This document shows, piece after piece, positions 15,934 through 51,118 of a stretch of 64,000 bases of DNA. The notes beneath the pieces were generated by a model that did no database searches, was not told where the DNA came from, and was given only the letters and a program-made list of their open reading frames with translations. Source of the DNA: a virus (lineage: Duplodnaviria; Heunggongvirae; Uroviricota; Caudoviricetes); the IMG/VR virus record IMGVR_UViG_3300031555_002005. One strand, 5' to 3'. A program made the position numbers and the translations under genes. Positions within the stretch are counted from its first letter, which is position 1, and each line of letters starts with the position of its first letter.

Positions 15934-17490
15934 GTGACAGAATTGCAAAATGAAAATAATGCAGTGAAATTTGATAAAACAAATGTACAGTCGGAGCTAT
16001 TGTTTTGCGGCTGTATGTATAAAGAACCAGATTTATATCTAAGTTATGGTGAATCTACAAAGTCTAAGTATGACTTGTCTGATCCTGCGACAAGATTTTT
16101 TTATGACTTGTTTGAAGATTACTATTTAACTTTCAGTCAGGATATTTCTCAGAACAAAATCAATAATTTTGTAACGCAAAACTCTGAAAGATTGAAGTCA
16201 TACAAGAGTTATGGTGGATGGAAAACCATTCAGAACATGATGGATTTAGCAGATCCTAATGATTTTAAGAACGTATTTAATACGGTCAAGAAGTATTCAT
16301 TGATTCGTGAATATGACAAGCAAGGATTCCCTGCTGAAAAAATGCTGTCAATGAAGAACTTCCAGTACATGACGGCTCATGATGTGTATCGTATGATGCG
16401 CAGTAAGGCAGATAAAATTAATACTAAAATTAATGTTATTGAAGAGCCTGTATTGCTTACTAAGGGAGTTTCTAAAGTTGTTGATTCTTATTTGTTGGCT
16501 CCGCAATTTGGCATTCAGACGCACTGGAAGGGATACAATGAATATTTTAGAGGTCTATTGCCTGGAAATGTTTTATTCCAAGGTTTTCTTTCCAATGAAG
16601 GTAAGTCAAGAAATCTTGTTAATCTAATTGCATATGTTACTCTTGTTAAAAAACAAAAGTTTATGCTGCTAAGTAATGAGATGACTGAAGATGCAATGAA
16701 GAACTGCTTGATTACTACTGTACTAAACTGCAAGGAATTTAAGGAACTTCATGGTGTTGAGCTTATGAAGCCTGAAAAAGAAATCACCATGGGCATGTAC
16801 AGAGATGATGTTACAGGTGAGTTTATAGAAAGAAAAAATGATGGCAAGGGAAACTTCACAGAAAGCGAAGAAGATTTCCTTAACAGAATTAAAAGCACAA
16901 AGGAATATCAGGACGTAATTAAGGTTGCCAACTGGATGGAAGAACAGCTGGAAGGCAAATTCTATTTTAATGATATTACCTCTGATTATAGCGATGAAGC
17001 AATTGAGTTGGAAGTCAGAAGAGCAAAGCTTGTTTATAATTGTAATTGCTTTGCGGTTGATACATTGAAAGCTTGGGGCGCTGAGGACTGGGTTAAGGTT
17101 AAGGCAACTGCTACCAAGATTGTTGAGCTTGGAAAGGAATTGAAGTTATTCGGTATGTGCACATTCCAGCTGACTGACGCAACAGTATTTGATAGTGTGT
17201 TTGATCTGTCGAGTAATAATATTGGTGCGGCTAAGGGCATAAAGCATCCAGTCGATTTATTGACGCTTGGTAAAAGAATTACACCAGAAGAATATCCGTC
17301 GTTGCAATATTTGGCTTATGACGATAATTGGGGCGAAGAGGTAGCACATGACCTTGATCCTCAGAAGCAATATTTTGGCCTGCGAATCGACAAGAACCGT
17401 CTAAATGAGAAGGGTAAGATACTATTGTTTTCCTACGATTTAAATTTCAATTTTTGGTACAACGAGGGAATTTTGATTAAAAAGAAATAA
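15934..17490 (+). CDS. DnaB-like replicative helicase (divergent)
   Basis: GxLxxxxxxxGKS pattern resembling the DnaB C-terminal domain; size 518 aa; non-ATG start. Confidence 0.4.
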   Translation: MTELQNENNAVKFDKTNVQSELLFCGCMYKEPDLYLSYGESTKSKYDLSDPATRFFYDLFEDYYLTFSQDISQNKINNFVTQNSERLKSYKSYGGWKTIQNMMDLADPNDFKNVFNTVKKYSLIREYDKQGFPAEKMLSMKNFQYMTAHDVYRMMRSKADKINTKINVIEEPVLLTKGVSKVVDSYLLAPQFGIQTHWKGYNEYFRGLLPGNVLFQGFLSNEGKSRNLVNLIAYVTLVKKQKFMLLSNEMTEDAMKNCLITTVLNCKEFKELHGVELMKPEKEITMGMYRDDVTGEFIERKNDGKGNFTESEEDFLNRIKSTKEYQDVIKVANWMEEQLEGKFYFNDITSDYSDEAIELEVRRAKLVYNCNCFAVDTLKAWGAEDWVKVKATATKIVELGKELKLFGMCTFQLTDATVFDSVFDLSSNNIGAAKGIKHPVDLLTLGKRITPEEYPSLQYLAYDDNWGEEVAHDLDPQKQYFGLRIDKNRLNEKGKILLFSYDLNFNFWYNEGILIKKK

Positions 17491-19726: not shown

Positions 19727-20254
19727 ATGAACCTAACAAAAGTAAGTAAATATATTAGTTTAATTTTGCGCCATAAGCCAGAAACAATTGGCATCAGCCT
19801 TGATGAGCATGGCTGGGCCAATGTAAAGGATCTTATTGATGGCGTAAATAAAACTCACAAGCTAGATATGAAAATGCTTGAAGAGATTGTAGCAACAGAT
19901 GATAAGCAGCGCTATTCTTTCAATGAAGATAAGACTATGATTCGTGCCAATCAGGGGCATTCTATTGATGTAGACGTGGAACTTGAAGAAGCTGTGCCTC
20001 CTGAGATGCTTTGGCATGGAACTGGTGTTAAATACATGAAGAGCATTGATACAGAGGGGCTTATTCCTAAGTCCAGATTGTATGTGCATTTGTCTACTGA
20101 TCCTAATACGGCAATGGAGGTCGGTAAGAGACATGGTGCACCTATGATTTACTGCATTGATGCGCTAAGAATGCATGAAGATGGATATAAGTTTTACAAA
20201 TCCAAGAACGGTGTGTGGTTAACTAAACATGTGCCTGCGGAGTATTTTAGGTAA
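19727..20254 (+). CDS. kptA: RNA 2'-phosphotransferase (Tpt1/KptA family)
   Basis: Strong similarity to E. coli KptA: LRHKPE, GW..V..L, RANQGHS, LWHGT, YVHLS, NGVWLT motifs. Confidence 0.85.
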   Translation: MNLTKVSKYISLILRHKPETIGISLDEHGWANVKDLIDGVNKTHKLDMKMLEEIVATDDKQRYSFNEDKTMIRANQGHSIDVDVELEEAVPPEMLWHGTGVKYMKSIDTEGLIPKSRLYVHLSTDPNTAMEVGKRHGAPMIYCIDALRMHEDGYKFYKSKNGVWLTKHVPAEYFR

Positions 20255-20714: not shown

Positions 20715-21509
20715 ATGCCCAAATTTTTTGTAAGTTCTGATATTCATAGTGCATATACTCCGTGGATGAAGGCATTAAAAGAAGCGGGTTTTGATGAAAA
20801 CAATCCTAGTCACAAAATTGTCGTATGCGGAGATTTGTTCGATAGACTGGATGAATCTATTCAGGTGTACGATTTTGTTAAGGACATGCTTGAAAAAGAT
20901 AAGTTAATTTACGTAAAAGGAAATCACGAAAGTCTAATGGAAGAATGCCTTGAAAGAGGATACCCTGGAAGGCATGATTGGTCAAATGGTACGGCAAAAT
21001 CTATTATTGACCTCGTTCCCCATGCAGAGAATTTTTATGATGGTTGCGCCGTCGTACGTGAAAAAATGAAATCTTTGTGGGGCAAGACTGTCAATTATTT
21101 TGAGACTAAGAATTATATTTTTGTACATGGCTGGATCCCGGTTATTTGCAAGGATAATTTGCCTAGCTATTATACTAGAAATAGAAAGTTTGAATTTAAC
21201 CCAGAGTGGCGTCATGCGCACTTTTCTGAGTGGGAACAGGCTAGATGGTTAAACGGTATGGATATGGCCAGAAAAGGCTTTGTGGAGCCTGAGAAGACTA
21301 TTGTATGCGGACACTGGCATTGCAGCTATGGTCATATGATGGATGATATGGCTAAGAATGGCCCATTTGATTGTATTGATGAATTTGGAGAAACTGCAAT
21401 TTGGGAACCTTATTATGGAAATGGTATAATTGCAATTGATCGCTGCACTGCACATACTGGAGAGGTTAATGTTCTTGTCATTGAGGATGAACTGTTGGAG
21501 GAATTATGA
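20715..21509 (+). CDS. calcineurin-like metallophosphoesterase (candidate 2',3'-cyclic phosphodiesterase/phosphatase)
   Basis: GDLFDR and GNHE motifs; AAGGAGG RBS. Confidence 0.7.
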   Translation: MPKFFVSSDIHSAYTPWMKALKEAGFDENNPSHKIVVCGDLFDRLDESIQVYDFVKDMLEKDKLIYVKGNHESLMEECLERGYPGRHDWSNGTAKSIIDLVPHAENFYDGCAVVREKMKSLWGKTVNYFETKNYIFVHGWIPVICKDNLPSYYTRNRKFEFNPEWRHAHFSEWEQARWLNGMDMARKGFVEPEKTIVCGHWHCSYGHMMDDMAKNGPFDCIDEFGETAIWEPYYGNGIIAIDRCTAHTGEVNVLVIEDELLEEL

Positions 21510-22233: not shown

Positions 22234-22578
22234 ATGGCAATTAAGTATTTTGTAAACGAAGAGAAGCGACAGGTTATTGGTCTGCTGGAAAACACTCGGT
22301 GGGACGCACTGAATAAGATTTGTAAGACTGTTGCGGATACTGATTTTTGTGTAGTGCCCAATGAAAAGTACATGATGCCCTCTGAATTCAGAACTGTTGT
22401 CACCTGTGATCCTAGAGATGAGTTTGATGTAGAGATTGGTAAGAAGATTGCCAAGGAGCGTCTACTAAAGAATTATTACGCATCTCTTGATAAGCGTGTG
22501 AACAAGTTCTTGGACGCTGCGCTGATCTTCAATGGAAAGGTATTCAAGACTCCTGAAACGCTTGAAAATAACACTTGA
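22234..22578 (+). CDS. hypothetical protein
   Basis: GAGAGGAAC RBS before the ATG at 22234. Confidence 0.55.
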   Translation: MAIKYFVNEEKRQVIGLLENTRWDALNKICKTVADTDFCVVPNEKYMMPSEFRTVVTCDPRDEFDVEIGKKIAKERLLKNYYASLDKRVNKFLDAALIFNGKVFKTPETLENNT

Positions 22579-22603
22579 CAAAATGTAAGATGTATGATAT
22601 AAT
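22575..22603 (+). promoter_or_regulatory. sigma-A-type promoter driving the tRNA array
   Basis: TTGACA-N17-TATAAT followed by the conserved element. Confidence 0.55.
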
Positions 22604-22857: not shown

Positions 22858-22983
22858 GACGGTGTAGCTCAGTTGGAAGAGCAATAGCCTTTGTCAGATG
22901 CAGGCTTGCACTAATTCAGTTCGATTCTGAAGTTTGGCACCATAAGCTATGGGTCGAGAGTTCGAGCCTCTCCACCGTCACCA
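22858..22983 (+). tRNA. interrupted tRNA. A 57-nt anticodon loop (about 50 extra nt) contains a tRNA-like minihelix ending in CCA. Would be tRNA-Lys (UUU) if the insert is excised.
   Basis: Acceptor GACGGTG/CACCGTC; D-arm; anticodon stem ATAGC/GCTAT separated by 57 nt; T-arm GAGAG-TTCGAGC-CTCTC; CCA encoded. Confidence 0.55.
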
Positions 22984-23009
22984 AAAGAAATGGAGTTTAT
23001 TATGTATCA

Positions 23010-23265
23010 TTCTTATTCTTGGAAGAAACATCATGATTGGGTTAAAGCGATAAGGAAAAGAAAAGTTGCAAAAGACATTTTCCCTTTTTATGACGAATGC
23101 CCCGAATTACATAAGCTCCATCATTATTCTAAAAATAAATTTCATTGTGTTTGGACTTATTCTCCGAAAACAAAGCAGAATGGAATTTATAACTACAAAG
23201 TAAGTGACATGCGAAAAATCCAAAGATTATTTGATTCTAAAAAAGAATATGATATGGTCCCTTAG
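23010..23265 (+). CDS. hypothetical protein inside the tRNA array
   Basis: AAATGGAG RBS; stop overlaps the start of tRNA-Asn. Confidence 0.4.
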
Positions 23266-23450: not shown

Positions 23451-23604
23451 ATCCCAGTAGCTCAGCTGGATAGAGCAACGGTCTTCGGGGAGTTCGTTAA
23501 AAGGTAAGATACTTTAGGATAAAACCTAAGGAGATTACAGTTCGAGTCTGTTGCTCCCCACCATAAACCGTAGGTCGGGGGTTCGAGTCCCTCCTGGGAT
23601 ACCA
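23451..23604 (+). tRNA. interrupted tRNA. An 87-nt anticodon loop (23483-23569) contains a nested tRNA-like element (23487-23563). Would be tRNA-Arg (UCU) if the element is excised.
   Basis: Acceptor ATCCCAG/CTGGGAT; D-arm GCTC..GAGC; anticodon stem ACGGT/ACCGT separated by 87 nt; T-arm GGGGG-TTCGAGT-CCCTC; CCA encoded. Confidence 0.55.
23487..23563 (+). ncRNA. nested tRNA-like element inside the anticodon loop (acceptor GGGGAGT/GCTCCCC, anticodon arm TTAGG-ATAAAAC-CCTAA, T-arm, CCA)
   Basis: Folded by hand; ends ACCA; flanked by CTTC and TAA, which would join into a 7-nt loop CTTCTAA. Confidence 0.4.
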
Positions 23605-23610
23605 AAATAT

Positions 23611-23745
23611 CGGGAACAGGTGGAATGGTATACACATCGGAACCATAACTGAGTTTTGATAAAAACTTGCCAACAGCAAATACGTGGACGTAAAATCCGA
23701 CGCTTTTGCAAGCATCCTTGGTTCGAATCCAAGGGTTCCCGACCA
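23611..23745 (+). tRNA. class-II-like tRNA with an extra stretch of about 47 nt (a 54-nt segment between the anticodon-stem strands)
   Basis: Acceptor CGGGAAC/GTTCCCG; anticodon stem TCGGA/TCCGA separated by 54 nt; long variable hairpin; T-arm CCTTGG-TTCGAAT-CCAAGG; CCA encoded. Confidence 0.4.
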
Positions 23746-23896: not shown

Positions 23897-24541
23897 ATGG
23901 AACAGAAGAAAAAAGATTATTCCAAGTATAGAAAAAAGTATTGGAGAGAACAAATAAAACATAGAGGTGTTCAATTTCTAGGTGGTGTGTGTCGTAATTG
24001 CGGAGGCGCTTTTGAAGATTGTTGCTATGATTTTCATCATTTAAATCCAAAAGAAAAAGACTTCACGATTGGAAATGTACAAACTAACGGAGCAAAAAGT
24101 TGGTTTAAAGTACGTGACGAATTAAAGAAGTGTGTACTATTATGTGCGAACTGTCATCGTCTTGCTCATGCAGGACTAATTGAAACAGATCTTCAGTTAT
24201 ATTTTAATGATGAATACTATGAATGGGATTTGACAAAATTTAAACTAATTGATTCATCAACTGGTTTGCCCAAGGATGCAAATATTACATGTCCTATATG
24301 CGGACAATACAAATCTCCAAATGCAAATAAATGTTCAGAGTGTGCAATGAAAGAGCAAATAAGATTTGAAGTCTCACGAGAAGAATTAAAAGAAATGATA
24401 TACACTATGGCATTTACTGATATTGGTAAAAAATATGGGGTTTCTGATAATTCTATTAGAAAAAGATGTGAAAAATTTGGATTACCATCTTACAAGAAAG
24501 ATATTCTAAAATACTCACCAGAAGAGTGGGCATCTATTTAG
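23897..24541 (+). CDS. HNH homing endonuclease
   Basis: HHLNPKEKD...CANCHRLAH. Confidence 0.75.
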   Translation: MEQKKKDYSKYRKKYWREQIKHRGVQFLGGVCRNCGGAFEDCCYDFHHLNPKEKDFTIGNVQTNGAKSWFKVRDELKKCVLLCANCHRLAHAGLIETDLQLYFNDEYYEWDLTKFKLIDSSTGLPKDANITCPICGQYKSPNANKCSECAMKEQIRFEVSREELKEMIYTMAFTDIGKKYGVSDNSIRKRCEKFGLPSYKKDILKYSPEEWASI

Positions 24542-26436: not shown

Positions 26437-27064
26437 TGCACTCAAGGGCACTACAGATGTTACCGATATTAGAAAACTCATATCGCCCTCGTAAATACTA
26501 AGAATGGTGCGAAGTATTTACACAAATCTCACGCAACACTACTTATTGCAGTAAGTTGATTGAATAAAGGTGTTGCTTATATAGGGGAGTCGTTCAAAGG
26601 AAGGACTGTAGTCTCCAAAACTACCAATGGGATATCGTGATTCTCCTCCCCTGCCAAGTAAGTGATACTTAAATACTGCAGAATAAAGGATTTGCCTTCC
26701 AGGGAACTGTGCCTGCATAGATCCCGTTTACTGGTGTTGATGCCAAAGTACACGGTGCAGTAGCCAGCTGATAAAGCCAACAACAAAGATTGGCCGCTTG
26801 TTTCGTGCGGCATATAAAAGTGAAACTCGCTAGTCACAGTGTGAACCTGAAAAAGATGCTTCGTCAAAAGCTTAAAATGGCATCGCTCTTCAATAATTGG
26901 CGGTTGTTGGAAATCTAAAGAAAGGAAATTATGTATCATGTGGAAGACTTTTAAAAAGAGACTTTTTGATGCTATTGTTGAATACGGTAAGTTTGTTCAG
27001 TTTATGTATTCCTAATAGCGTTATTAAGTGGATCATTGAGCCTAAAAAGCTTAATGATTCCCTC

Positions 27065-28240: not shown

Positions 28241-28269
28241 ACAAGCAGTTCAAGGGAACAGTACAAAAT

Positions 28270-28560
28270 TAATAAAGGCGCACACAGCAAATTTACTATA
28301 TGGTTAAAATTTTTTATGTTTGTGTTAAAAAATGAGAAGGTTCAAATCCTTTAAAAATTTCATGCGCCTTGACAAAAAAAGACACTAACAGCAACTTTAT
28401 TAACTATACAATTTGGGCTTGTAAATATTGTTAATAGTGTCTTGAATATGGGAACGTCCGGTGGCAGTAAATAAGTGCATGGAGTGGGCAGCACACACAG
28501 CAATTTTACTTAACAATTTCTGGAAAAAATTGACTCCTTGGTTCAACTCCGAGGGTTCCC
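28270..28560 (+). ncRNA. three hairpin-enclosed RNA units, each carrying a CACANACAGCAA(A)TTT motif
   Basis: 8-bp closing stems AAGGCGCA/TGCGCCTT, AAGACACT/AGTGTCTT, AGTGGG/CCCACT. T-arm-like GGTTCAAATCC inside unit 1. Confidence 0.35.
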
Positions 28561-28582
28561 AAAAATCCCACTAACTTAATAT

Positions 28583-28712
28583 GCGGAAGTAGCTCAGCTG
28601 GGAGAGCAATAGTATTTATTTAAAAATGTGTTTAGATTAACACTAACAGCAATTTTTATTTAAAGAAGAAGTTGGGGACTATGGGTCGTAGGTTCGAGCC
28701 CTACCTTCCGCA
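28583..28712 (+). tRNA. interrupted tRNA: 64-nt anticodon loop carrying the ACAGCAATTTTTA motif
   Basis: Acceptor GCGGAAG/CTTCCGC; D-arm GCTC-AGCTGGGA-GAGC; anticodon stem ATAGT/ACTAT separated by 64 nt; T-arm GTAGG-TTCGAGC-CCTAC. Confidence 0.5.
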
Positions 28713-28724
28713 TCAACTAAATAT

Positions 28725-28852
28725 GCCAGAGTAGCTCAGTTGGTAGAGCACGTATATATCAACCAACGTGGTATGAAAATTTCACGCACAGCAATTTTAA
28801 TGATTCTTGCCTTTTAAGCACGTTGTCGTGGGTTCGAGTCCCATCTCTGGCA
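28725..28852 (+). tRNA. interrupted tRNA: about 55 extra nt between the D- and T-arms carrying the ACAGCAATTTTA motif
   Basis: Acceptor GCCAGAG/CTCTGGC; D-arm GCTC-AGTTGGTA-GAGC; T-arm GTGGG-TTCGAGT-CCCAT. Confidence 0.45.
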
Positions 28853-28862
28853 AACTTTATAT

Positions 28863-28981
28863 GGCGCAATGGTGTAATGGTAGCACAACGTAATAATTGA
28901 GGTTTGTTAAAATCTTAAACTGCAATTTTACAATGCATGATCACGCCGTAGGTTGAAGTTCGATTCTTCATTGCGTCTCCA
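28863..28981 (+). tRNA. interrupted tRNA-like: about 45 extra nt carrying a CTGCAATTTTA motif; CCA encoded
   Basis: Acceptor GGCGCAA/TTGCGTC; D-arm GTGT-AATGGTA-GCAC; T-arm TGAAG-TTCGATT-CTTCA. Confidence 0.4.
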
Positions 28982-28997
28982 AATTAACAATTAAATA

Positions 28998-29118
28998 AAG
29001 GCACATACAGCAATTTTAAATTCTGAAGCAGCCATTTTGCTTTGTAGTATAACTGGTTAGTACGCAGGACTGATAATCCTGAAATGCTGGTTCGAGTCCA
29101 GTCTTTAAAAATGTGCCT
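28998..29118 (+). ncRNA. 9-bp-stem-enclosed unit: the motif plus a tRNA-like 3' three-quarter (anticodon arm CAGGA-CTGATAA-TCCTG, T-arm)
   Basis: Outer stem AAGGCACAT/ATGTGCCTT; no canonical acceptor pairing found. Confidence 0.35.
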
Positions 29119-29353
29119 TGCAATTAAAAGAGAGACGAACAGCAAATTGATTGAATTAAAGAAGATAGAAAACTTATTTACTAATTATTGTTGTTTTATT
29201 TATGTATTAGATTATTTATCACTTTTAAGTCTCTCGAATAAATAAAATCTCCAAAGACGCTAACAGCAATGTACGACTTGACTGCAAATCAATAATCGTA
29301 AAATGCGTCTTGGATTTTAGTAATAAAATCAAAACTTTTAGGAGGAACAAAAA

Positions 29354-30907
29354 ATGGAATTTATGAGTGCAGTTAGACAGACTCTCAATAATGAGTACAA
29401 TGTGTCTATCACTGAGAACGGCGCAGTTGGTTATAGAACCACTGGCAAGGAGCTGCTTGACCTGAACTTTGCAGTAGCATCTCTTCGTAAGATGACCGAT
29501 GCAGAAGTCGCAAAGAGATTCAAGAAGGCTTTTTGTGAAGATCAGGTTCTCGCAATGAAGTGGCTGTTCTACGCAAGAGACGTTCGTGGTGGTTTGGGTG
29601 AGCGTAGACTGTTCAGAGTTGTTCTGGCAGATCTGGTACAGTCCAATCCTGAAATGGTTATTCCTGTCATGAATCTGATTCCTGAGTATGGTCGCTACGA
29701 TGACCTGTGGTGTCTGTTAGATGACAAGGAAGCAGCTAATGTGATTTATCAGATTGTTGATAATCAGCTGAAGCGTGACTGGGAAAACATGGCTTCAAAG
29801 AAGCCTATTTCTATTCTGGCAAAGTGGATGCCTTCTATCAATGCATCTTCTGCTAAGACCAAGGAATACGGAAAGAAGCTGTGCAAGGCTCTGAAGATGA
29901 CTGAGCGTGAATACCGCAAGGCTCTGAGCAAGCTTCGTGCATATCTGGATGTTGTTGAAGTTAAGATGTCCGATAAGAACTGGTCTGCAATTAAGTATGA
30001 AGCAGTTCCTTCTCGTGCAAATCTGATTTACAACAGCGCATTCCTGAGAAATGACGAAGCAAGACGTAGAGAATATCTTGGCCAGCTTGAAAAGGGCGAG
30101 ACTAAGATTAACGCATCTACTCTGTTCCCTCACGATATTGCTCATAAGTATACTAACAACTCATGGGGTCGTGGTCTAAAGGCAAAGGATGCAACCATTG
30201 AAGCTCTGTGGAAGGCGCTACCTGACACTGTAAATGGCTGTGGTAATACTATTGTTGTTGCTGACGGCTCTGGTAGTATGACTTGCACTGTTGACAATCA
30301 CTCTCGTGTTACTGCACTTGAAGTTGCAAACGCACTGGCAATTTACTTTGCTGAGCACTCTTCTGGTCAGTTCAAGGATAAGTACATTACTTTCTCTGAA
30401 AGACCTCAGTTTGTTGACTTCAGCAATTGTAAGACTCTGCATGACAAGCTACACACTGCACTAATGCATAATGAAGTTGCAAATACTAACATCGAAAAGG
30501 TGTTTGATTTGATTCTGACTTCTGCGGTCAATAACCATATGCATCAGGAAGATCTTCCTCAGAACATCCTGATCATCTCTGATATGGAGTTTGATAGCTG
30601 TGCAACTTCTGGCAATGTTGATCGTTGGAGCTACCGTAACAGACCTACTCAGAAGCTATTCGATGTTATCGCTCAGAAGTACGCAAGAGCAGGTTACAAG
30701 ATGCCTCGTCTGGTATTCTGGAATGTAAACTCTCGCACTGGTACTATTCCTGTAAAGGAAAATGACCTTGGTGTGGCACTGGTCAGCGGTTTCTCTGTAA
30801 ACGTTGCCAAGATGGTCATGAGTGGCAAGACTGATCCTTTCGAGTGTCTGCTTGAAACTCTGAACTCTGAGAGATATGCTCCTGTTGAGGAAGCTTTAAA
30901 TCAGTAA
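29354..30907 (+). CDS. vWA-domain protein (DUF2828-like; possibly a Ro60/TROVE-related RNA-binding protein)
   Basis: MIDAS motif VVADGSGSM in the C-terminal half; helical N-terminal domain; GGAGG RBS. The family assignment is from memory. Confidence 0.5.
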   Translation: MEFMSAVRQTLNNEYNVSITENGAVGYRTTGKELLDLNFAVASLRKMTDAEVAKRFKKAFCEDQVLAMKWLFYARDVRGGLGERRLFRVVLADLVQSNPEMVIPVMNLIPEYGRYDDLWCLLDDKEAANVIYQIVDNQLKRDWENMASKKPISILAKWMPSINASSAKTKEYGKKLCKALKMTEREYRKALSKLRAYLDVVEVKMSDKNWSAIKYEAVPSRANLIYNSAFLRNDEARRREYLGQLEKGETKINASTLFPHDIAHKYTNNSWGRGLKAKDATIEALWKALPDTVNGCGNTIVVADGSGSMTCTVDNHSRVTALEVANALAIYFAEHSSGQFKDKYITFSERPQFVDFSNCKTLHDKLHTALMHNEVANTNIEKVFDLILTSAVNNHMHQEDLPQNILIISDMEFDSCATSGNVDRWSYRNRPTQKLFDVIAQKYARAGYKMPRLVFWNVNSRTGTIPVKENDLGVALVSGFSVNVAKMVMSGKTDPFECLLETLNSERYAPVEEALNQ

Positions 30908-40123: not shown

Positions 40124-41509
40124 ATGGCTTATACAGCATTTATTACAAGAATTAAGAATCTGCGTACACACCCTAAGGCGGATCGACTGCAGATGGGTGA
40201 GTGCTTTGGTAACACTGTAATTGTCTCTCTGGAATACGAGGACAACCAGCTTGGCATTTACTTCCCTTCTGATGGACAGATTAGCACTGCATTTGCAGAA
40301 GCAAATAACCTGCTTCGCAAGAAGGATGAAAACGGCAATAACATTGGCGGTTACATGGATCCCGACAAGCGCAACGTCACTGCTATTAAGCTTCGTGGAG
40401 AAAAGTCTGATGGCCTGTTCCTGCCTCTGAAGTCTCTTGAGCCTTTTGGTGACATTACCACTCTGCGTGAGGGTGACCGAATTGATAACTTTAATGGACA
40501 TGAGATTTGCTGCAAGTATGTACCTTTTAAGCGTGAACGTACTGCCGCAGGTGGAGCAGGAAAGCGCATTAAGCGTAGAGCTAAGAGAAGCATTGCACCT
40601 CTGTTTTATGAGCATATGGACACTGAGCAGCTCGCCTACAATCTGGCAGCTTTTAAGCCCGGTGACGAGATTGAAATCACTCTAAAGATGCATGGCACTT
40701 CTCAGCGAACTGCACACCTACCTGTGTTTAAGGACTACAAGCGCACAATCTGGGACAAACTATTCCGTCGTGAAGGTACTCCTGTTTATGATTGGGGTTA
40801 CGTCTCTGGCACTCGTCGTACTGTTCTAGAGAATTTTGAAGGTGGATATTATGGATCTAACGAGTTCCGTGAAGCACATTCTAAGTTCTTTGAGGGCAAG
40901 CTGTGGAAGGGCGAAGAGGTCTACTACGAGGTGGTTGGTTTCACTCATACTGGCGCACCTATTATGTCTACGGCAGACAATAAGAAGCTGAACGACAAGG
41001 AGTTTGTTAAGCAGTATGGAAAGACTACTACTTTCTCTTATGGTTGTGCCCCTGATGGTGTAAATTCCGCAGATGGAGTTATTCCTCAGTCTGATATCTA
41101 CGTTTACCGTATGACAATGACCAATGAAGATGGTGATGTTGTCGAGTACACTCCTGATTTCATGCGCTATCGTTGTGAGCAGATGGGTGTTAAGACTGTC
41201 CCTGTGATGTGGAAGGGCACTATTCCTTACGCAGATTGGCTTGAAGCTAACACGTGGGAAAGCGCAGGGCATTATGCAATTACTCGTGCAGAAAAGTACT
41301 ATGATGGTCCCGACCCTATTGGCAAGACTCATGTCCGTGAAGGCGTTGTAGTTCGTATTCTGAACCGTCCTAAATTCTGTGCATACAAGCATAAGAACTG
41401 GTCTTTCAAGGCTCTTGAAGGAATTGTTAAGGTTGAAGCTGAGGCTCCTGATATGGAAGAAGCCGATGGCATTAATGAGGAAGTGATGACTGATGAATTT
41501 TCACAGTGA
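40124..41509 (+). CDS. RNA ligase (Rnl2/Rnl5-type nucleotidyltransferase) fused to an N-terminal EMAP/Trbp111-type tRNA-binding OB domain
   Basis: N-terminus HPKADRL...SDGLF resembles a tRNA-binding OB fold. Ligase motif I LKMHGTS (KxHG), motif IV EGVVVR, motif V KHKNWSFK. Confidence 0.7.
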   Translation: MAYTAFITRIKNLRTHPKADRLQMGECFGNTVIVSLEYEDNQLGIYFPSDGQISTAFAEANNLLRKKDENGNNIGGYMDPDKRNVTAIKLRGEKSDGLFLPLKSLEPFGDITTLREGDRIDNFNGHEICCKYVPFKRERTAAGGAGKRIKRRAKRSIAPLFYEHMDTEQLAYNLAAFKPGDEIEITLKMHGTSQRTAHLPVFKDYKRTIWDKLFRREGTPVYDWGYVSGTRRTVLENFEGGYYGSNEFREAHSKFFEGKLWKGEEVYYEVVGFTHTGAPIMSTADNKKLNDKEFVKQYGKTTTFSYGCAPDGVNSADGVIPQSDIYVYRMTMTNEDGDVVEYTPDFMRYRCEQMGVKTVPVMWKGTIPYADWLEANTWESAGHYAITRAEKYYDGPDPIGKTHVREGVVVRILNRPKFCAYKHKNWSFKALEGIVKVEAEAPDMEEADGINEEVMTDEFSQ

Positions 41510-42302
41510 TGAATGGATCATGCGGAATGTTCGAGAGCACTACAACGAGGCTCTCGAACACTTCCCCGAAGATAGAATTGTAGGTATCTTTTATCAGGGC
41601 AGCGGTAACTACGGCCTTGACTATGAAGGTTCTGATGTAGACACCAAGCTGATTGTCACGCCAACCTTTGAAGATATTGCAATGAATAAAAAGGCAGTAA
41701 GTACAACTCATATCAGAGAGAATGAAGAGCACATCGATTTTAAGGATATTAGACTCTATATCCAGACTTTCAGAAAGCAAAACTTGAACTTCCTAGAAAT
41801 CCTGTTTACTAAATATGCAATTATCAATCCTATGTATAAAGATGAATGGGATAGACTTGTAAAGGCTCGTGAGAAAATTGCACGCTATGCACCTGTACAG
41901 GCTATTAAGTCTATGAAGGGCATTGCAAAAGAAAAGTATCATGCAATGGAACATCACTATCCTGCACGAATGGCATGGATTGAGAAGTTTTCTTACGATC
42001 CGAAACAACTGCATCATCTACTGAGAGTTAATGAATATATCAGCAGATACATTGACGGCGAATCATATGAAGATTGCTTGATTTCAAAAATGCCAGACTA
42101 TTTACAGTCAGTAAAACTTGGTTTTCACAACCTGGATGATGCTCGCATGATTGCTAATTGGGCTATTGGCTGTATTGATAAAATGTGCGATAAGTATCTA
42201 GAGACTTGTTCAACTGAAGTTGATAAAGATGTTGATGTTCTACTTGATGATGTGCAGTACAACATTATGAAGATTGCTATTAAGAAAGAAATTGGTGATT
42301 AA
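41493..42302 (+). CDS. Pol-beta-superfamily nucleotidyltransferase
   Basis: GSGNYGLDYEGSDVDTKL NTase signature. Confidence 0.6.
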   Translation: MNFHSDEWIMRNVREHYNEALEHFPEDRIVGIFYQGSGNYGLDYEGSDVDTKLIVTPTFEDIAMNKKAVSTTHIRENEEHIDFKDIRLYIQTFRKQNLNFLEILFTKYAIINPMYKDEWDRLVKAREKIARYAPVQAIKSMKGIAKEKYHAMEHHYPARMAWIEKFSYDPKQLHHLLRVNEYISRYIDGESYEDCLISKMPDYLQSVKLGFHNLDDARMIANWAIGCIDKMCDKYLETCSTEVDKDVDVLLDDVQYNIMKIAIKKEIGD

Positions 42303-42303
42303 A

Positions 42304-43200
42304 ATGAACAGACCTAGTTTAATTTTACTTGTCGGAATTCCCGGCTCAGGCAAAACTACATACGCAGAAAAATATATTAAAGAGAATCCCAATACAGTAC
42401 ATCTTTCCTCCGACAAGATTCGTGAAGAACTTTGGGGTAATGAAGCTACTCAGGGCGACAACAACAAAGTGTTTTCTCTGATGCAGTCTAGAGCAATTGA
42501 AGCACTGAATAACGGACAGTCTGTGGTATATGACGCTACGAACATTACAAGAAAAGACAGATCTTACATTATCACTCTTTGCCCTAAGTTTGCTAAGATT
42601 GAGTGCCATATTATTTGGGCACCTATTGAGACTTGCATCGAGAGAGACGCTGCCAGAGAACGCACTGTTGGCAAGGAAGTCATTGATAGAATGCTTAAGC
42701 GATTCCAGGCACCTTATTATGATGAAGGGTTTGATGGTATCTATATTCGTTATTCTGATGACAATTTTAATGCAAAAGAATACAGTAAAAAGATAGTTAT
42801 GAACATGGATATCCCTCATGATAACCCTCATCACACTTTGAATATTTTAGATCATTGTGCTGAAGCAGGATCATATTTTTATGAAAGAGGTCAGTATGAC
42901 GAAGTGTGGGTGGCAGCTATGTATCATGACATAGGAAAACCATACGTAAAAGCATTTGTTGATAGCAAAGGTAATCCTTGTGAGAATGCTCATTACTACC
43001 AGCATCAATGTTTGGGTTCATATATGTATTATGGAATGACTAGTGAAATTGGTGGTACTAGTGACACATGGGTAAAAATTGCTTGGCTGATTTCCACACA
43101 TATGGATCCTTATCTAAATACGAAATATTACAATAGACTTCCTGCTTATCTAAAGAAACAGGTAGATTTGCTTCACGAGGCGGACAGGAATGCACATTAA
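42304..43200 (+). CDS. pnk: polynucleotide 5'-kinase fused to a C-terminal HD-domain phosphoesterase (RNA end-healing enzyme)
   Basis: Walker A LLVGIPGSGKTTYA as in T4 Pnk; C-terminal H...HD motifs (HHTLNILDH, MYHDIGK). Confidence 0.7.
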   Translation: MNRPSLILLVGIPGSGKTTYAEKYIKENPNTVHLSSDKIREELWGNEATQGDNNKVFSLMQSRAIEALNNGQSVVYDATNITRKDRSYIITLCPKFAKIECHIIWAPIETCIERDAARERTVGKEVIDRMLKRFQAPYYDEGFDGIYIRYSDDNFNAKEYSKKIVMNMDIPHDNPHHTLNILDHCAEAGSYFYERGQYDEVWVAAMYHDIGKPYVKAFVDSKGNPCENAHYYQHQCLGSYMYYGMTSEIGGTSDTWVKIAWLISTHMDPYLNTKYYNRLPAYLKKQVDLLHEADRNAH

Positions 43201-44049: not shown

Positions 44050-44069
44050 TTTGATTGGAGAATAATATT

Positions 44070-44903
44070 ATGGATACAAGTGAACTAGCAAAAAGAATGA
44101 AAGACTATGAGTCTGTGCCAAAAGCAAGGCTGATGAGGCGTTGTCCCGTGGCATGTCGTATTGACGGAAAGGCTCACCATAGCTTTACAAAAGGATTCAA
44201 AAGACCGTTTGACGAAGTTTATATTAAGTCGATGCAGAAAACAGCAAAATATTTATGTGAAAATGTACAAGGTGTTGTGCTGTCATATCAGCAGTCAGAT
44301 GAAATTACTTTGATTTTAATTGACTATAAAGAATTCAACACATCTCCATATTTTGACTACGAAATTCAAAAGCTGTGTTCAATTCTAGCTTCTATGGCAA
44401 CTATGGCGTTCAATAAGTTTTTTGCAAACGAATGTTGTCAGTGGTTTGAAAATAACATTGATTGGAGTGACCTAGACGTTGTCGCAGCAGATGAAGATAT
44501 CAAGAAGTTGTTTAATGCCTATACCAAGGCTTGTGAAAAAGGTGCAATGTTCGATGCTAGAGTATTTAATATCCCTAAGGAAGAAGTCATGAACCTTCTA
44601 TATTGGAGACAGTTAGATGCTACTAGAAACAGCATTCAAATGGTTGGGCAGGCAAACTTCTCTCATAATCAGCTTCACGGTAAGAACTGTAGCGATATTC
44701 AGGATATGTTAATGTTCGAAAAGGGCATCAACTGGAACGATTATCCGACTCACCTAAAGCGTGGCAGCTGTTGTATTAAGAAACCTTTCAAGATTAATGA
44801 GGGCACCGAGCAGGAAACAGTTCGTAACAAATGGGTAATTGACACTGAGATACCTATTTTCACGCAAGATAAAGATTATGTAAATAAATTGATTTTTATT
44901 TAA
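44070..44903 (+). CDS. Thg1-like protein (tRNA 3'-5' nucleotidyltransferase / tRNA 5'-end repair)
   Basis: RIDGKAHHSFTKGFKRPFD matches the Thg1 signature RIDGRNFHKFT...FEKPND. Confidence 0.65.
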   Translation: MDTSELAKRMKDYESVPKARLMRRCPVACRIDGKAHHSFTKGFKRPFDEVYIKSMQKTAKYLCENVQGVVLSYQQSDEITLILIDYKEFNTSPYFDYEIQKLCSILASMATMAFNKFFANECCQWFENNIDWSDLDVVAADEDIKKLFNAYTKACEKGAMFDARVFNIPKEEVMNLLYWRQLDATRNSIQMVGQANFSHNQLHGKNCSDIQDMLMFEKGINWNDYPTHLKRGSCCIKKPFKINEGTEQETVRNKWVIDTEIPIFTQDKDYVNKLIFI

Positions 44904-48767: not shown

Positions 48768-49937
48768 ATGATTCATTCTTATCAGAAACCTTTGAGTGGC
48801 AAAAGTGTTGGTGTAGTATTTGGCTCTTTTGCCCCTCTACACCAAGGTCATCTGGACTGCATTATGAGGGCAAAGAAAGAAAATGATGGCGGCGCAATTG
48901 TAATCGTTTGCGGATTCGACGGTGACAAGGGTGGTAAAATGATGCCACTAAAGCGAAGATACAGATATGTTAGAGAGTTCTTCTCTGATGATGATTTGGT
49001 TGCTGTATATGCAATTGATGACGGTGAGATTGGCGCAGAGCCTTATCCTAATGGTTGGGAAAAGTGGCTCGACGAGTTTTGGAATATTTGGGAAAAGGCC
49101 ACTGAGCTATCTTGGAAAGAAACAGATGGTCCAGAAGGTTTTGAAACTAGTGTTAGTTTGGAACGTCCTAAGCGCCACTGGTATGCAGGTGACCCTAATT
49201 ATGTGAGTGACCTCGTTGAACGTGGCGAAGAAGCAACTCTGCTTGACCGTGTAGCAGACAATCCTATTTGTGCAACAATGATTCGTCAGAATCCTATTAA
49301 GCACTGGGATAAAATTACTTTCCCCTTCCGTCGTCTGTTTAGCCACAACATTCTAATTTGTGGCACAGCATCTGAAGGTAAATCAACTCTTACAACGGAT
49401 CTTGGTAAGTATTTCAATGCGCCTTATAGCTATGAATGGGCACGTGACTATATGAGAGAAAGTTGCGTTATTGACTGGGAACTAGATGGCGCAGATTATA
49501 TGGCTTTCCTTGAAGGCCAGTACAACCTAAACAAGCAGATGATTAATTCTCCTGGCAATCATGGCATTTTCTTTGCTGATTCTGACTCTATGGTAACTAG
49601 AATGTATGCAGAGTATTATGCTCAGGATGAAACTTGTGCGCTTACTCAAGAAGAATTTGAACGAGTAGCAGTAATGGCCGATGAAATTACACGTAAATCT
49701 CGTTGGGACAAGATCTTCTTACTGGCACCGCATGGTGTATTTGTTGACGACCATGAAAGATATATGGCTCATTCTGGCATGAAGGAACGGCAAGAGCTAT
49801 TTGAAATCCTATGCAGAAACATTAAGGAATCTGGAAACTGGGACAAGGTTACAATTCTAACTGGAAACTATTACGAAAATTTCATGGCAATTGTAAGTTA
49901 TGTAAAAGATCGAATTGAGAAAGGCATGGCTGATTAA
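48768..49937 (+). CDS. nadR: NadR-like bifunctional NMN adenylyltransferase / ribosylnicotinamide kinase
   Basis: GSFAPLHQGH (HxGH nucleotidyltransferase) N-terminal domain; C-terminal P-loop GTASEGKST. Confidence 0.7.
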   Translation: MIHSYQKPLSGKSVGVVFGSFAPLHQGHLDCIMRAKKENDGGAIVIVCGFDGDKGGKMMPLKRRYRYVREFFSDDDLVAVYAIDDGEIGAEPYPNGWEKWLDEFWNIWEKATELSWKETDGPEGFETSVSLERPKRHWYAGDPNYVSDLVERGEEATLLDRVADNPICATMIRQNPIKHWDKITFPFRRLFSHNILICGTASEGKSTLTTDLGKYFNAPYSYEWARDYMRESCVIDWELDGADYMAFLEGQYNLNKQMINSPGNHGIFFADSDSMVTRMYAEYYAQDETCALTQEEFERVAVMADEITRKSRWDKIFLLAPHGVFVDDHERYMAHSGMKERQELFEILCRNIKESGNWDKVTILTGNYYENFMAIVSYVKDRIEKGMAD

Positions 49938-50429
49938 ATGGCTAAAATGTATTTAATGTGCGGTTGCAGTGGCGCAGGAAAGACAACATTTGCAAAAGAG
50001 TTTGCCAAGAAAAATAGCCTTAAGTATTTAGGTATTGATGATTTCTACGCACTAGTCAATGGTGATGAATGTATACACACTAATTCATTTGAAGTGTGGA
50101 TTGAATTTTATAAAGCAATTCATGAAGCAGAGATTAATAATCTTGACGTAGTTATTGATACAAATGCAATTACTCGTTCTCATCGTGAACAGTTTATTGA
50201 TTGGTTTCCAACTTTTGAACATCATCTAATTTACATTAAAGCTACACATGACCTAAGAAAGCAGAACAATAAATCTCGTCGCAGACAAGTTCCAGACGAT
50301 GTAATGGATAAAATGCGTGACCAATTTCAAATACCTTTGTTGAGTGAAAAGTTTAAAACAATCACAATAATTAGAAACGTTGATAATAATTTTAGAGTAC
50401 CTATTGTATTAAAAGGAGAAGCAAAATGA
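49938..50429 (+). CDS. P-loop kinase (AAA_33/zeta-like)
   Basis: MCGCSGAGKTT Walker A. Confidence 0.5.
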   Translation: MAKMYLMCGCSGAGKTTFAKEFAKKNSLKYLGIDDFYALVNGDECIHTNSFEVWIEFYKAIHEAEINNLDVVIDTNAITRSHREQFIDWFPTFEHHLIYIKATHDLRKQNNKSRRRQVPDDVMDKMRDQFQIPLLSEKFKTITIIRNVDNNFRVPIVLKGEAK

Positions 50430-51118
50430 AGAATTGGGTATTGAAGAATTTTTGGAATGGATACACTCTTTTCGAGAAGCTGTTTATGCTAGTAGCAGTA
50501 GCAATGCAGGTGATTGTCTTTATGATTACACCTGATAGTTGGCTAAATATCGTAGCTGGCCTTGCTGGTGTAGTGTCTGTTATTATGTGCGCCAAGGGTA
50601 GAACCATGTTCTATTTTATTGGCTTTATTCAGACGGTAACGTATCTGGTTCTTGCATGGCAGAATAGATTTTATGGCGAAGTGCTTGAAAACATTTTCTA
50701 CTTTGTAACTATGATTTTGGGCATTTTTGAGTGGAAGAAGAATGAAGTCACCAATGCTGACGGTACTGAGGATGTTATTGCCAAGAAGTTCAGTCCCACT
50801 CAGTGGATTCTGTCTATTGCTGGCACTGTAATTGCAACGATGGCTATGGGTTACTGGTTAGACGGTATTGGTAGCGCACAGGCATATACAGATGCAGCTA
50901 CTAATGTTATGGCTATCTTTGCTCAGCTTTTAATGGTTTGGAGATTCCGTGAGCAGTGGATTTGGTGGATCGTAATTGATCTGTTCTGCATCAAGATGTG
51001 GTTCGTTGCAGGTAATTGGTCCATGGTTGCAATGTACATTGTTTGGACTGTAAATGCAATTTATGGTTGGATTAATTGGAGTAAGTTGAACAAGATTCAG
51101 AGCGTTAAGGAGGCTTAA
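50426..51118 (+). CDS. pnuC: PnuC nicotinamide riboside transporter
   Basis: About 230-aa polytopic membrane protein, Trp-rich, with PnuC-like layout, immediately after NadR. Confidence 0.6.
   Translation: MKNWVLKNFWNGYTLFEKLFMLVAVAMQVIVFMITPDSWLNIVAGLAGVVSVIMCAKGRTMFYFIGFIQTVTYLVLAWQNRFYGEVLENIFYFVTMILGIFEWKKNEVTNADGTEDVIAKKFSPTQWILSIAGTVIATMAMGYWLDGIGSAQAYTDAATNVMAIFAQLLMVWRFREQWIWWIVIDLFCIKMWFVAGNWSMVAMYIVWTVNAIYGWINWSKLNKIQSVKEA

Follow-up and report, generated by a model that had tools for sequence, protein, structure and literature searches.

A tRNA-Arg(UCU) gene interrupted inside its anticodon by a tRNA-shaped element in an uncultured phage: a candidate mobile intron

The DNA analysed here (the window) is a stretch of 64,000 nucleotides (nt) from a large uncultured phage of the Caudoviricetes (IMG/VR record IMGVR_UViG_3300031555_002005). 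All of its genes lie on the plus strand, its GC content is about 0.36, and besides a tRNA array at 22.7-34.1 kb it encodes DNA polymerase III alpha, LigA, RecJ and many homing endonucleases. Within the array, at 23451-23604, there is a tRNA-Arg(UCU) gene that is interrupted inside its anticodon by a 77-nt element shaped like a tRNA, and a tRNA-Lys(UUU) gene of the same design lies upstream. A preliminary description of the letters alone had proposed this nested layout, and every element that it listed was found at the place given. The parts are as follows, with the four outer arms read from the sequence.

23451-23457 and 23594-23600, plus strand: outer acceptor stem, ATCCCAG paired with CTGGGAT
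Between acceptor and anticodon stem, plus strand: outer D-arm, GCTC-AGCTGGATA-GAGC
23478-23482 and 23567-23571, plus strand: outer anticodon stem, ACGGT paired with ACCGT
3' of the anticodon stem, plus strand: outer T-arm, GGGGG-TTCGAGT-CCCTC, then the acceptor strand and A-CCA
23451-23486, plus strand: 5' exon, with acceptor, D-arm containing A20, 5' anticodon-stem strand and loop bases C32 U33 U34 C35
23487-23563, plus strand: putative tRNA-like intron, 77 nt, from G1 of its acceptor to its 3' ACCA
23564-23604, plus strand: 3' exon, with U36 A37 A38, 3' anticodon-stem strand, variable loop, T-arm, acceptor, A73 and CCA
22858-22983, plus strand: nested tRNA-Lys(UUU), Rfam tRNA 55.8 bits, also matched by a structural scan

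The Rfam tRNA model matched 23451-23601 from end to end (model positions 1-71) with 52.4 bits against a gathering score of 29, and the outer acceptor, D-arm, T-arm and CCA can be read in the sequence. Its alignment contains a single long insertion, placed in the anticodon loop. The 5' part of the gene runs ATCCCAG-TA-GCTC-AGCTGGATA-GAGC-A-ACGGT-CUUC, then 77 nt follow, and the 3' part runs UAA-ACCGT-AGGTC-GGGGG-TTCGAGT-CCCTC-CTGGGAT-A-CCA. The two strands of the anticodon stem are 84 nt apart (4 + 77 + 3) and not 87 nt, as had first been described. Joined exons form the canonical 7-nt loop CUUCUAA with U33 and a purine at 37; the predicted junction (marked ^) reads ...ACGGUCUUC^UAAACCGU... and the intron-less site is GCAACGGTCTTCTAAACCGT. 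The spliced sequence was called tRNA-Arg(tct) by ARAGORN without the intron option. E. coli tRNA-Arg is recognised by A20, C35 and A/G73, and the outer tRNA has all of these identity elements (A20 in the D-loop AGCTGGATA, C35, A73). Furthermore, 30 nt of the 5' exon are shared without a difference with 11 phage tRNA-Arg(UCU) genes that have no insert. These came from 11 viral contigs with exactly ...GTAGCTCAGCTGGATAGAGCAACGGTCTTC, which was the search pattern, followed by TAA and the 3' anticodon-stem strand, and most of them continue as TAAACCGTAGGTC. The match of the joined exons to these genes extends through D-arm, anticodon arm and variable loop, and they also align end to end with the tRNA-Arg genes of related phages (see below), so that the earlier expectation of a tRNA-Arg(UCU) upon excision was upheld. 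Because removal of 23487-23563 is the only one that restores CUUCUAA as in the 11 uninterrupted genes, the insert is exactly this segment, and its site lies between anticodon bases 35 and 36. AGA makes up 53% of the Arg codons in the open reading frames (ORFs) of the window, and 23451-23604 is the only tRNA-Arg that ARAGORN finds there. Our results confirm that 23451-23604 is a tRNA-Arg(UCU) gene interrupted inside its anticodon by a 77-nt element.

The insert itself was organised as GGGGAGT...TTAGG-ATAAAAC-CCTAA...ACAG-TTCGAGT-CTGT-T-GCTCCCC-A-CCA. Its acceptor GGGGAGT/GCTCCCC has 7 bp, one of them U-G, and is retained in the minimum-free-energy fold; the middle arm TTAGG-ATAAAAC-CCTAA carries the loop AUAAAAC, and the T-arm ACAG-TTCGAGT-CTGT, with the loop UUCGAGU, precedes a discriminator A and CCA. 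The features of an RNase P substrate are present, namely an acceptor stem stacked on a T-arm, G+1 and 3' A-CCA. The preliminary description took the insert for a complete tRNA-like element: acceptor, middle arm, T-arm and A-CCA stand, whereas completeness does not, with a weak D-stem of about 2 bp, only 27.8 bits (E 1.7e-4) with the Rfam tRNA model, just below the gathering score of 29, and an "anticodon", AAA, that is abnormal for decoding. ARAGORN typed it as "tRNA-???". A search for a decoding tRNA in the insert was negative on the Rfam threshold (27.8 versus 29), the D-stem and the anticodon loop, neither of the latter being normal, and a tRNA-Phe(AAA) was ruled out by the sub-threshold score, the weak D-stem and the loop AUAAAAC. 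Judged from its letters, the insert is tRNA-like and not demonstrably a complete tRNA.

A stand-alone paralogue of the element was matched by the structural scan elsewhere in the array.

26583-26656, plus strand: stand-alone paralogue of the element, AGGGGAG...CTCCCCT-G-CCA, equivalent to 2744-2817 of contig L015

The 5' part of this paralogue (AGGGGAGTCGTTCAAAGGAAGGACT...CTCCCCT-G-CCA) resembles the Arg insert, and its arm GTAGT-CTCCAAA-ACTAC holds a CCA in the anticodon-like place. No recognisable outer tRNA surrounds 26583-26656, and 26440-27060 is without a convincing plus-strand ORF.

The companion tRNA-Lys gene has a shorter insert of 50 nt (22893-22942), an acceptor and T-arm also placed at 35/36, with the joined loop CUUU^UAA, and its spliced form was called tRNA-Lys(ttt) by ARAGORN. 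Both genes end their inserts in the same way, ...ACCA^TAA, as had been pointed out. The intron mode of ARAGORN finds both genes and shifts the introns, resulting in Met(cat) and Arg(tcg). They belong to one predicted operon with the following features.

22575-22603, plus strand: sigma-70 promoter, TTGACA-17-TATAAT, 12 of 12 consensus positions, TG-extended
22990-23265, plus strand: ORF of 91 amino acids directly after the nested tRNA-Lys

The order downstream of the promoter is Met-Ile-Lys-ORF91-Asn-Arg-...-Glu, in which Lys and Arg are the nested genes, and no plus-strand terminator was found from the promoter up to 24000. Near-identical promoter and leader modules stand at 22575, 27065 and 28214, each reading TTGACA-17-TATAAT and then ...ACAAAATTAAT, and each leading its own tRNA operon. 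The 91-aa ORF gave no family match in protein family searches; weak homologues lie beside nested tRNAs in L148 and L201, and it is absent from the close relative L002, where the tRNA-Lys is uninterrupted. L002 is a near-identical contig from the source project, and it ends (5311, equal to window position 23484) inside the anticodon loop of the tRNA-Arg, at ...GCAACGGTC. Such an end would fit a branching of the assembly graph between alleles with and without the intron in the population.

The recurrence of one architecture at two loci had been taken to argue against chance. We scanned for 7 of 7 acceptor pairs, an adjacent T-stem, an N-CCA end, flanks closing a 5-bp stem and a restored 7-nt loop with U33 and R37. 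This strict scan matched nothing on either strand of 1.51 Mb of unrelated DNA, and the window and its relatives gave 5 distinct matches; with the same design in L137, L141 and at least 34 further viral contigs, that argument holds. A second sample supplied an independent copy. The 914-nt contig L016 carries both nested genes, of which the Lys gene is identical to that of the window. Its Arg insert differs by 3 substitutions, including A50 to G, which retains the T-stem pair, and its loop is GUAAAAC. In the outer T-arm, 5 stem positions are changed with pairing kept (GGGGG/CCCUC to GAUGG/CUAUU), including one double change of G-C to U-A. Such compensatory changes are the signature of a gene still required to fold as a tRNA. 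Conservation with compensatory changes, a check that had been proposed for related genomes, is thus seen in the outer T-stem of L016 and, for the inner acceptor and T-stems, in covariation over 24 inserts (see next).

Five related phage contigs were found through the conserved gene 29354-30907. Uninterrupted tRNA-Arg(UCU) and tRNA-Lys(UUU) genes, aligning end to end with the joined exons of the window, were present in L137 and L139-L141. Two of these contigs have flush inserts in other tRNA genes. In L137, a 71-nt insert GGGATAG...CTATCCC-T-CCA sits in a tRNA whose joined loop is CUGU^UAA; ARAGORN miscalls it His, and the loop together with the discriminator G identifies it as tRNA-Asn. In L141, a 47-nt insert lies in tRNA-Leu(UAA) with the loop CUU^AAAA, that is, at 34/35. 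Only plain tRNAs were seen in the part examined of L001, a relative of 60% identity, in which an Rfam abiF RNA motif (16581-16617; 39.6 bits, gathering score 37) directly follows the tRNA array. Exact-sequence scans of the viral contigs for the insert, its T-arm and acceptor or the 3' junction returned nothing, the lineage of the window being absent from that collection. A metagenome scan with GGTCTTC-N{50,80}-CCATAAACCGT gave 120 matches, all chance or protein-coding and none within a tRNA. Among INPHARED phage genomes there was no relative of the tRNA region and no near match to 13 nested tRNAs; a more distant search of them gave ordinary tRNAs only and identified no cultured phage with the nested arrangement.

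A generic pattern (T-loop, 13 nt, CCA, TAA, 13-15 nt, T-loop) was more productive. It matched 68 loci in viral contigs, at least 34 of them genuine nested cases, whereas bacterial and archaeal genomes gave one genuine case among the 120 matches listed; the census is a lower bound because the pattern forced CCA^TAA. Thirty viral loci with 21 distinct inserts of 44-135 nt have a flush G1...NCCA element at 35/36 in tRNA-Lys(UUU), Asn(GUU) or Ile(GAU), and at least 4 further viral loci hold long versions of the insert. The genuine case among those listed, L282, is on a 12.6-kb contig of a metagenome-assembled genome, and its insert is homologous to the Arg insert of the window, sharing CCTAAGGAGATTA[C/A]AGTTC. 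When the inserts were removed in silico, ARAGORN run without its intron option recognised a standard tRNA in each of the 24 cases, and the outer acceptor, D and T arms had played no part in selecting them. In these 24 inserts, 98.6% of the acceptor and T-stem cells are paired, compared with 42-49% with slid partners, and 11 of 12 stem pairs show double-sided changes; T-stem pairing had not been selected for in most inserts, except for G53, which the search pattern fixed. The first alignment column is G in 22 of 24, and NCCA is found in all, an end that the scans imposed. The pairing and covariation indicate that the acceptor and T-stem structure of the inserts is under selection, and the counts that the family is widespread and phage-specific.

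The members of the family differ in how much of a tRNA they contain. Among 25 of them, ARAGORN recognised 3 ordinary tRNAs, 5 "tRNA-???" including that of the window, and 17 as non-tRNA. The three ordinary ones are Gly-UCC, Asp-GUC and Thr-UGU with matching discriminators, and the Gly and Thr inserts resemble, at 78-88% identity, stand-alone tRNA-Gly and tRNA-Thr annotated in phages. Since these inserts are real tRNAs, RNase P and 3' processing must act on some members. At the other extreme, the smallest inserts (44-61 nt) consist of acceptor, T-arm and NCCA alone, and the 44-nt one folds as a bare minihelix, which is the classical minimal substrate of RNase P and RNase Z. Because the smallest members are such minihelices, a non-decoding processing handle, an alternative raised in the preliminary description, fits the 77-nt copy of the window best and is most likely what it is.

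Mobility of the element was suggested by its association with homing endonucleases, one of which is encoded close by.

23897-24541, plus strand: free-standing HNH gene about 290 nt downstream of the nested tRNA-Arg, PHROG HNH families E 2e-23, candidate homing endonuclease

The same tRNA-Arg site, GCAACGGTCTTC^...^TAAACCGT, holds inserts of about 900 nt in L175, L202 and L194, whose ends form a 7-bp acceptor, a T-arm and N-CCA; those of L175 and L202 have a GIY-YIG endonuclease gene between these ends. In L162, a 735-nt insert with an HNH gene sits in tRNA-Lys. In 27 of the 68 loci, homologues of the HNH genes or the 91-aa ORF of the window lie no more than about 1 kb from the splice junction, always on the same strand, and in 8 loci they are inside the intron; the 77-nt copy of the window has no ORF. 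Intron-plus (window, L016) and intron-minus alleles (L137, L139-L141) of tRNA-Arg(UCU) coexist among relatives. With these present and absent alleles and the HNH or GIY-YIG genes inside sister copies or beside short ones, the element appears to behave, at the DNA level, like a homing intron. The GIY-YIG gene of L175 (1916-2630) contains in-frame TAG codons, at one of which L202 has Gln (NNG-TAG-YN versus NNGQYN), which suggests that the L175 phage may read TAG as an amino acid, as in the alternative codes of Lak and crAss-like phages.

Only one precedent was found in the literature, the "enigmatic" tRNA introns of Lak megaphages (Devoto et al., 2019, Nat Microbiol; PMC6784885). They interrupt the anticodon loops of phage tRNAs, their presence varies among variants, and one lying in tRNA-Thr was said to "encode a possible tRNA"; the paper gave neither a mechanism nor a family definition and made no link to homing endonucleases (PMC6784885). 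Like the intron of the window, Lak introns have a tRNA-like acceptor/T-arm module, the 3' strand of which lies directly against the 3' splice site, but they are placed near 37/38 (Table S6, PMC6784885), whereas the intron of the window sits at 35/36 and is the tRNA-like element alone, flush at both ends. In Lak introns an additional 5' hairpin and an A/U linker precede the tRNA-like part, whereas the intron of the window starts directly at acceptor G1, and Lak introns end after the discriminator (+1) without CCA, whereas that of the window ends in ACCA. RNase Z cuts CCA-less precursors right after the discriminator, so the CCA-less ends of Lak introns would fit a 3' splice site that tracks the tRNA 3'-end processing mode of the host. 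The breadth of the family, its minimal handles, complete inner tRNAs and endonuclease cargo and its phage specificity appear to be absent from the Lak report and from the other literature found.

Comparison with better known introns is also informative. Archaeal and eukaryotic tRNA introns (EndA/TSEN, then RtcB or Trl1 with Tpt1) are likewise short, not self-splicing and located in the anticodon region, and the window also encodes Tpt1 and a kinase. However, they are canonically at 37/38, and their removal by proteins and joining by an RNA ligase are for the element of the window only proposed. A bulge-helix-bulge intron was rejected: the junctions lie in an asymmetric internal loop of 4 and 7 nt (CUUC versus A-CCA-UAA) and not in 3-nt bulges flanking a 4-bp helix. 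A scan of about 60 window ORFs detected no splicing-endonuclease domain. Group I introns that carry homing endonuclease genes are likewise mobile, occur in bacterial and phage genes including tRNA anticodon loops and have present and absent alleles, and, as in this family, GIY-YIG or HNH genes stand in peripheral intron RNA or free alongside (PMC3984707; PMC13011429). A group I intron or self-cleaving ribozyme was rejected on size, 77 nt against a core (P3-P8) of typically at least 200 nt, for which a 44-nt member leaves no room, and, up to an E value of 10, none of the intron and ribozyme families of Rfam matched the insert. As the ORF-less inserts (44-135 nt) are too small for a P1-P9 ribozyme core, their removal would have to rely on trans-acting enzymes.

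Two other systems resemble parts of such a process. T4 Pnkp and Rnl1 repair tRNA-Lys cut in the anticodon loop by PrrC (reviews PMC3400036, PMC1920235). There, phage ligase and kinase/phosphatase re-seal an anticodon loop held by the tRNA body, as in the final step proposed below; however, the T4 break is host damage that leaves a cyclic phosphate and a 5'-OH at the ends, while here it would be programmed by the architecture of the gene, and the ligase of the window, unlike that of T4, is not detectably Rnl1-like. In the tRNA punctuation of mitochondrial transcripts and in MALAT1 mascRNA, a tRNA-shaped module within a longer RNA guides RNase P and RNase Z to cut at the two ends of the module, and the smallest inserts of the family correspond to the classical minihelix substrate. 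There, each flank becomes a product of its own and is not re-joined, whereas here the flanks are tRNA halves that would need ligation.

Genes that could act on RNA ends are present in the window.

40124-41509, plus strand: ATP-dependent RNA ligase, candidate exon joiner; phrog_968 "RNA ligase" E 9e-66, weak Pfam RNA_ligase and PHA02142 OB domain
41493-42302, plus strand: nucleotidyltransferase of RNA end healing/repair, adjoining the ligase
42274-43200, plus strand: Pnkp-like polynucleotide kinase with HD domain, RNA end healing/repair, near the ligase
44055-44903, plus strand: Thg1-like 3'-5' nucleotidyltransferase (tRNA 5'-end repair family), Pfam Thg1 1.2e-27, phrog_4717 1.9e-86
19727-20254, plus strand: RNA 2'-phosphotransferase Tpt1/KptA, Pfam PTS_2-RNA 3e-48, NCBIfam equivalog 250.7 against a cut-off of 239
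20715-21509, plus strand: calcineurin-like phosphoesterase, Metallophos 1e-13

The ligase is conserved in L137 and L141, both with nested tRNAs; its N-terminus resembles the DRB0094 ligase below cut-off, and a PDB sequence search with it gave no match. Tpt1 and the phosphoesterase are 3 kb upstream of the tRNA array. To our knowledge, bacterial and phage Tpt1 have no established substrate (discussed in PMC9503650), and RNA repair genes were described as common in large phages without reference to introns (PMC9503650). Tpt1 also belongs to a set of genes centred on nicotinamide adenine dinucleotide (NAD; 19727-20254, 48768-51118, 53618-55573), together with a NadR-like nicotinamide mononucleotide (NMN) adenylyltransferase/kinase, a PnuC NMN transporter and an NAD-dependent DNA ligase, and the phage appears to secure its own NAD+ supply. 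A reverse transcriptase ORF (1208-2467), most like group II intron reverse transcriptase/maturase (112 bits, below cut-off), is far from the tRNA array.

With these enzymes in view, we propose that the window contains a mobile tRNA-shaped intron in a functional tRNA-Arg(UCU), which RNase P and a second cut behind the CCA would set free and whose flanking exons the phage ligase would seal; this is the account that we think probable, though by no large measure. The host sigma-70 promoter at 22575, read in the sequence, would drive a polycistronic tRNA transcript. RNase P would then cut 5' of G23487, as at every tRNA of the operon, leaving a 5' exon that ends ...CUUC-3'OH. An endonuclease cut immediately 3' of CCA would give a 3' exon starting 5'-P-UAA...; a RNase Z/BN-type enzyme, RNase E or a phage enzyme may be considered for this cut, which is the weakest link since we cannot confidently name an enzyme that would make it. 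The outer acceptor, D/T and anticodon stems would hold the exons together while the ligase (40124-41509) seals the nick in the anticodon loop, and the neighbouring kinase, the phosphoesterase and Tpt1 would be on hand should the ends need healing. Mimicry of the target of processing enzymes is proposed since all copies retain the stacked acceptor/T-arm, G+1 and NCCA, which RNase P and tRNA 3'-processing enzymes would read; the rules known from RNase P model substrates are the basis for taking these as processing signals. That the family forms a distinct class of mobile introns, a tRNA mimic that is neither a ribozyme nor a bulge-helix-bulge substrate and hijacks tRNA end-processing enzymes and a phage ligase, is a tentative extension to which we give slightly less than an even chance. 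As far as sequence reaches, the interpretation first given in the preliminary description is supported.

Several points weigh against this proposal. Cleavage at both junctions and ligation are steps that we infer. We know of no enzyme that must cut exactly after an encoded CCA; CCA is an anti-determinant of RNase Z in Bacillus-type hosts, and the cuts of RNase E are imprecise. Ligases of the DRB0094/Rnl5 type prefer nicks in duplexes over nicks in loops, and the resemblance of the ligase N-terminus to them is below cut-off. Co-occurrence of the ligase with nested tRNAs is not established: 5 of the 68 contigs on the nested list were among the 80 close ligase relatives listed, all of one clade, an overlap that points neither way. 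The generic pattern, by forcing CCA^TAA, biased the census to tRNAs with U36-A37-A38, and acceptor pairing was part of the selection of inserts. Finally, Tpt1 and the kinase hint at ends with a 2',3'-cyclic phosphate and a 5'-OH, which RNase P does not produce; they may equally be explained as general repair against host anticodon nucleases.

The last point leads to an unlikely variant in which the same intron is removed by other chemistry, the kinase and phosphoesterase healing the ends, the ligase sealing them and Tpt1 removing a junction 2'-phosphate, as in fungi and plants, so that the tRNA shape would be a recognition fold only. The window does have a Tpt1 that passes the NCBIfam equivalog cut-off, a Pnkp-like kinase/HD protein, a calcineurin-like phosphoesterase and a ligase, and a substrate for bacterial or phage Tpt1 has yet to be established (general knowledge; PMC9503650), but the same repair genes are common in large phages without any mention of introns (PMC9503650). 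Moreover, the scan of window ORFs detected no 2H cyclic phosphodiesterase or splicing-endonuclease domain, the junctions do not have the geometry of a bulge-helix-bulge, and this chemistry has no use for the invariant G+1, NCCA and minimal acceptor/T-arm that RNase P and RNase Z need. It is quite unlikely, in our estimation, that a selfish insertion simply inactivated the gene, leaving a pseudogene or tRNA halves that are never re-joined and at most an inner RNA. Such an event would suit an element that is mobile and linked to homing endonucleases, relatives that manage with uninterrupted copies, and bacteria in which no splicing machinery is known for such introns. However, the outer exons are intact, five T-stem positions changed between two variants with pairing kept, flush removal gave a canonical tRNA in all 24 independent cases with the outer arms unselected, and AGA is the main Arg codon while the window has a sole tRNA-Arg. 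The insertion is always flush and restores a 7-nt loop, which a neutral disruption would not need.

It is very unlikely that the inner element is a working decoding tRNA and that two tRNA genes are packed in one locus. Inserts elsewhere are normal Gly-UCC, Asp-GUC and Thr-UGU tRNAs with matching discriminators; for the window copy, the 27.8 bits against 29, the about 2 D-stem pairs and an AAA that ARAGORN could not assign stand in the way, as does the failure of 17 of 25 family members to qualify as tRNAs. A chance resemblance or an assembly chimera is barely conceivable: tRNA arrays are repetitive and break assemblies, and L002 ends inside this very anticodon loop, but the same nested gene with point differences came from an independent sample, and against chance stand the absence of control matches in 1.51 Mb and dozens of independent examples.

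Bacteria and phages are thought to have only self-splicing introns of groups I and II, and protein-dependent splicing of tRNA is considered archaeal or eukaryotic. The tRNA-shaped phage inserts would imply enzyme-dependent splicing in bacterial cells, by RNase P together with a 3' endonuclease and a ligase of the phage. If so, phage RNA ligases and perhaps bacterial and phage Tpt1, whose roles have long been puzzling, would have a natural substrate, and cassettes of RNA ligase, Pnk and Tpt1 would gain a housekeeping role in tRNA splicing in bacteria. The "enigmatic" Lak introns would be accounted for, and homing endonucleases would have a third "neutral vehicle" besides group I introns and inteins, making their insertions in tRNA anticodons phenotypically silent. 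One locus could yield two tRNAs where the insert is a real tRNA. Standard annotation would also be shown to miss nested tRNAs, which the bacterial modes of ARAGORN and tRNAscan skip, and to which their intron modes assign a wrong anticodon (Met for Lys, His for Asn).

The array contains over-long tRNAs of another design as well. Three lie within 28260-29300 (28583-28712, 28725-28852 and 28863-28981), and comparable clusters were found in L137 (9314-9673), L139 (4972-5221), L140 (7947-8199) and L141 (9271-9649). Their AT-rich inserts of 32-57 nt consist of a hairpin and then the motif ACAGCAAWTTT, of which about 9 copies occur within 1 kb, some in stem-closed elements that are not tRNAs. The cluster is always just upstream of a phrog_850 "RNA-binding protein" gene (DUF2828 and DUF7788; 29354-30907). 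The insert of 28725-28852 splits the anticodon stem in its 5' strand, CG^...^TGC-CTTTTAA-GCACG, and its position is the same in three relatives despite differing anticodons (UUU, UGU, UGU, UAU). From the letters, these inserts look like a second, different kind of tRNA interruption. Two paralogous tRNA-like RNAs at 23606-23745 and 28450-28556, with the acceptor GGGAAC/GTTCCC and the T-arm CTTGG-TTCRAWT-CCRAG, each hold an insert of about 50 nt with the ACAGCAA motif. The former has a long variable arm and a CCA end, folds far better than shuffled sequences (z = -3.9) and may be a Leu-UAA-like tRNA with G33.

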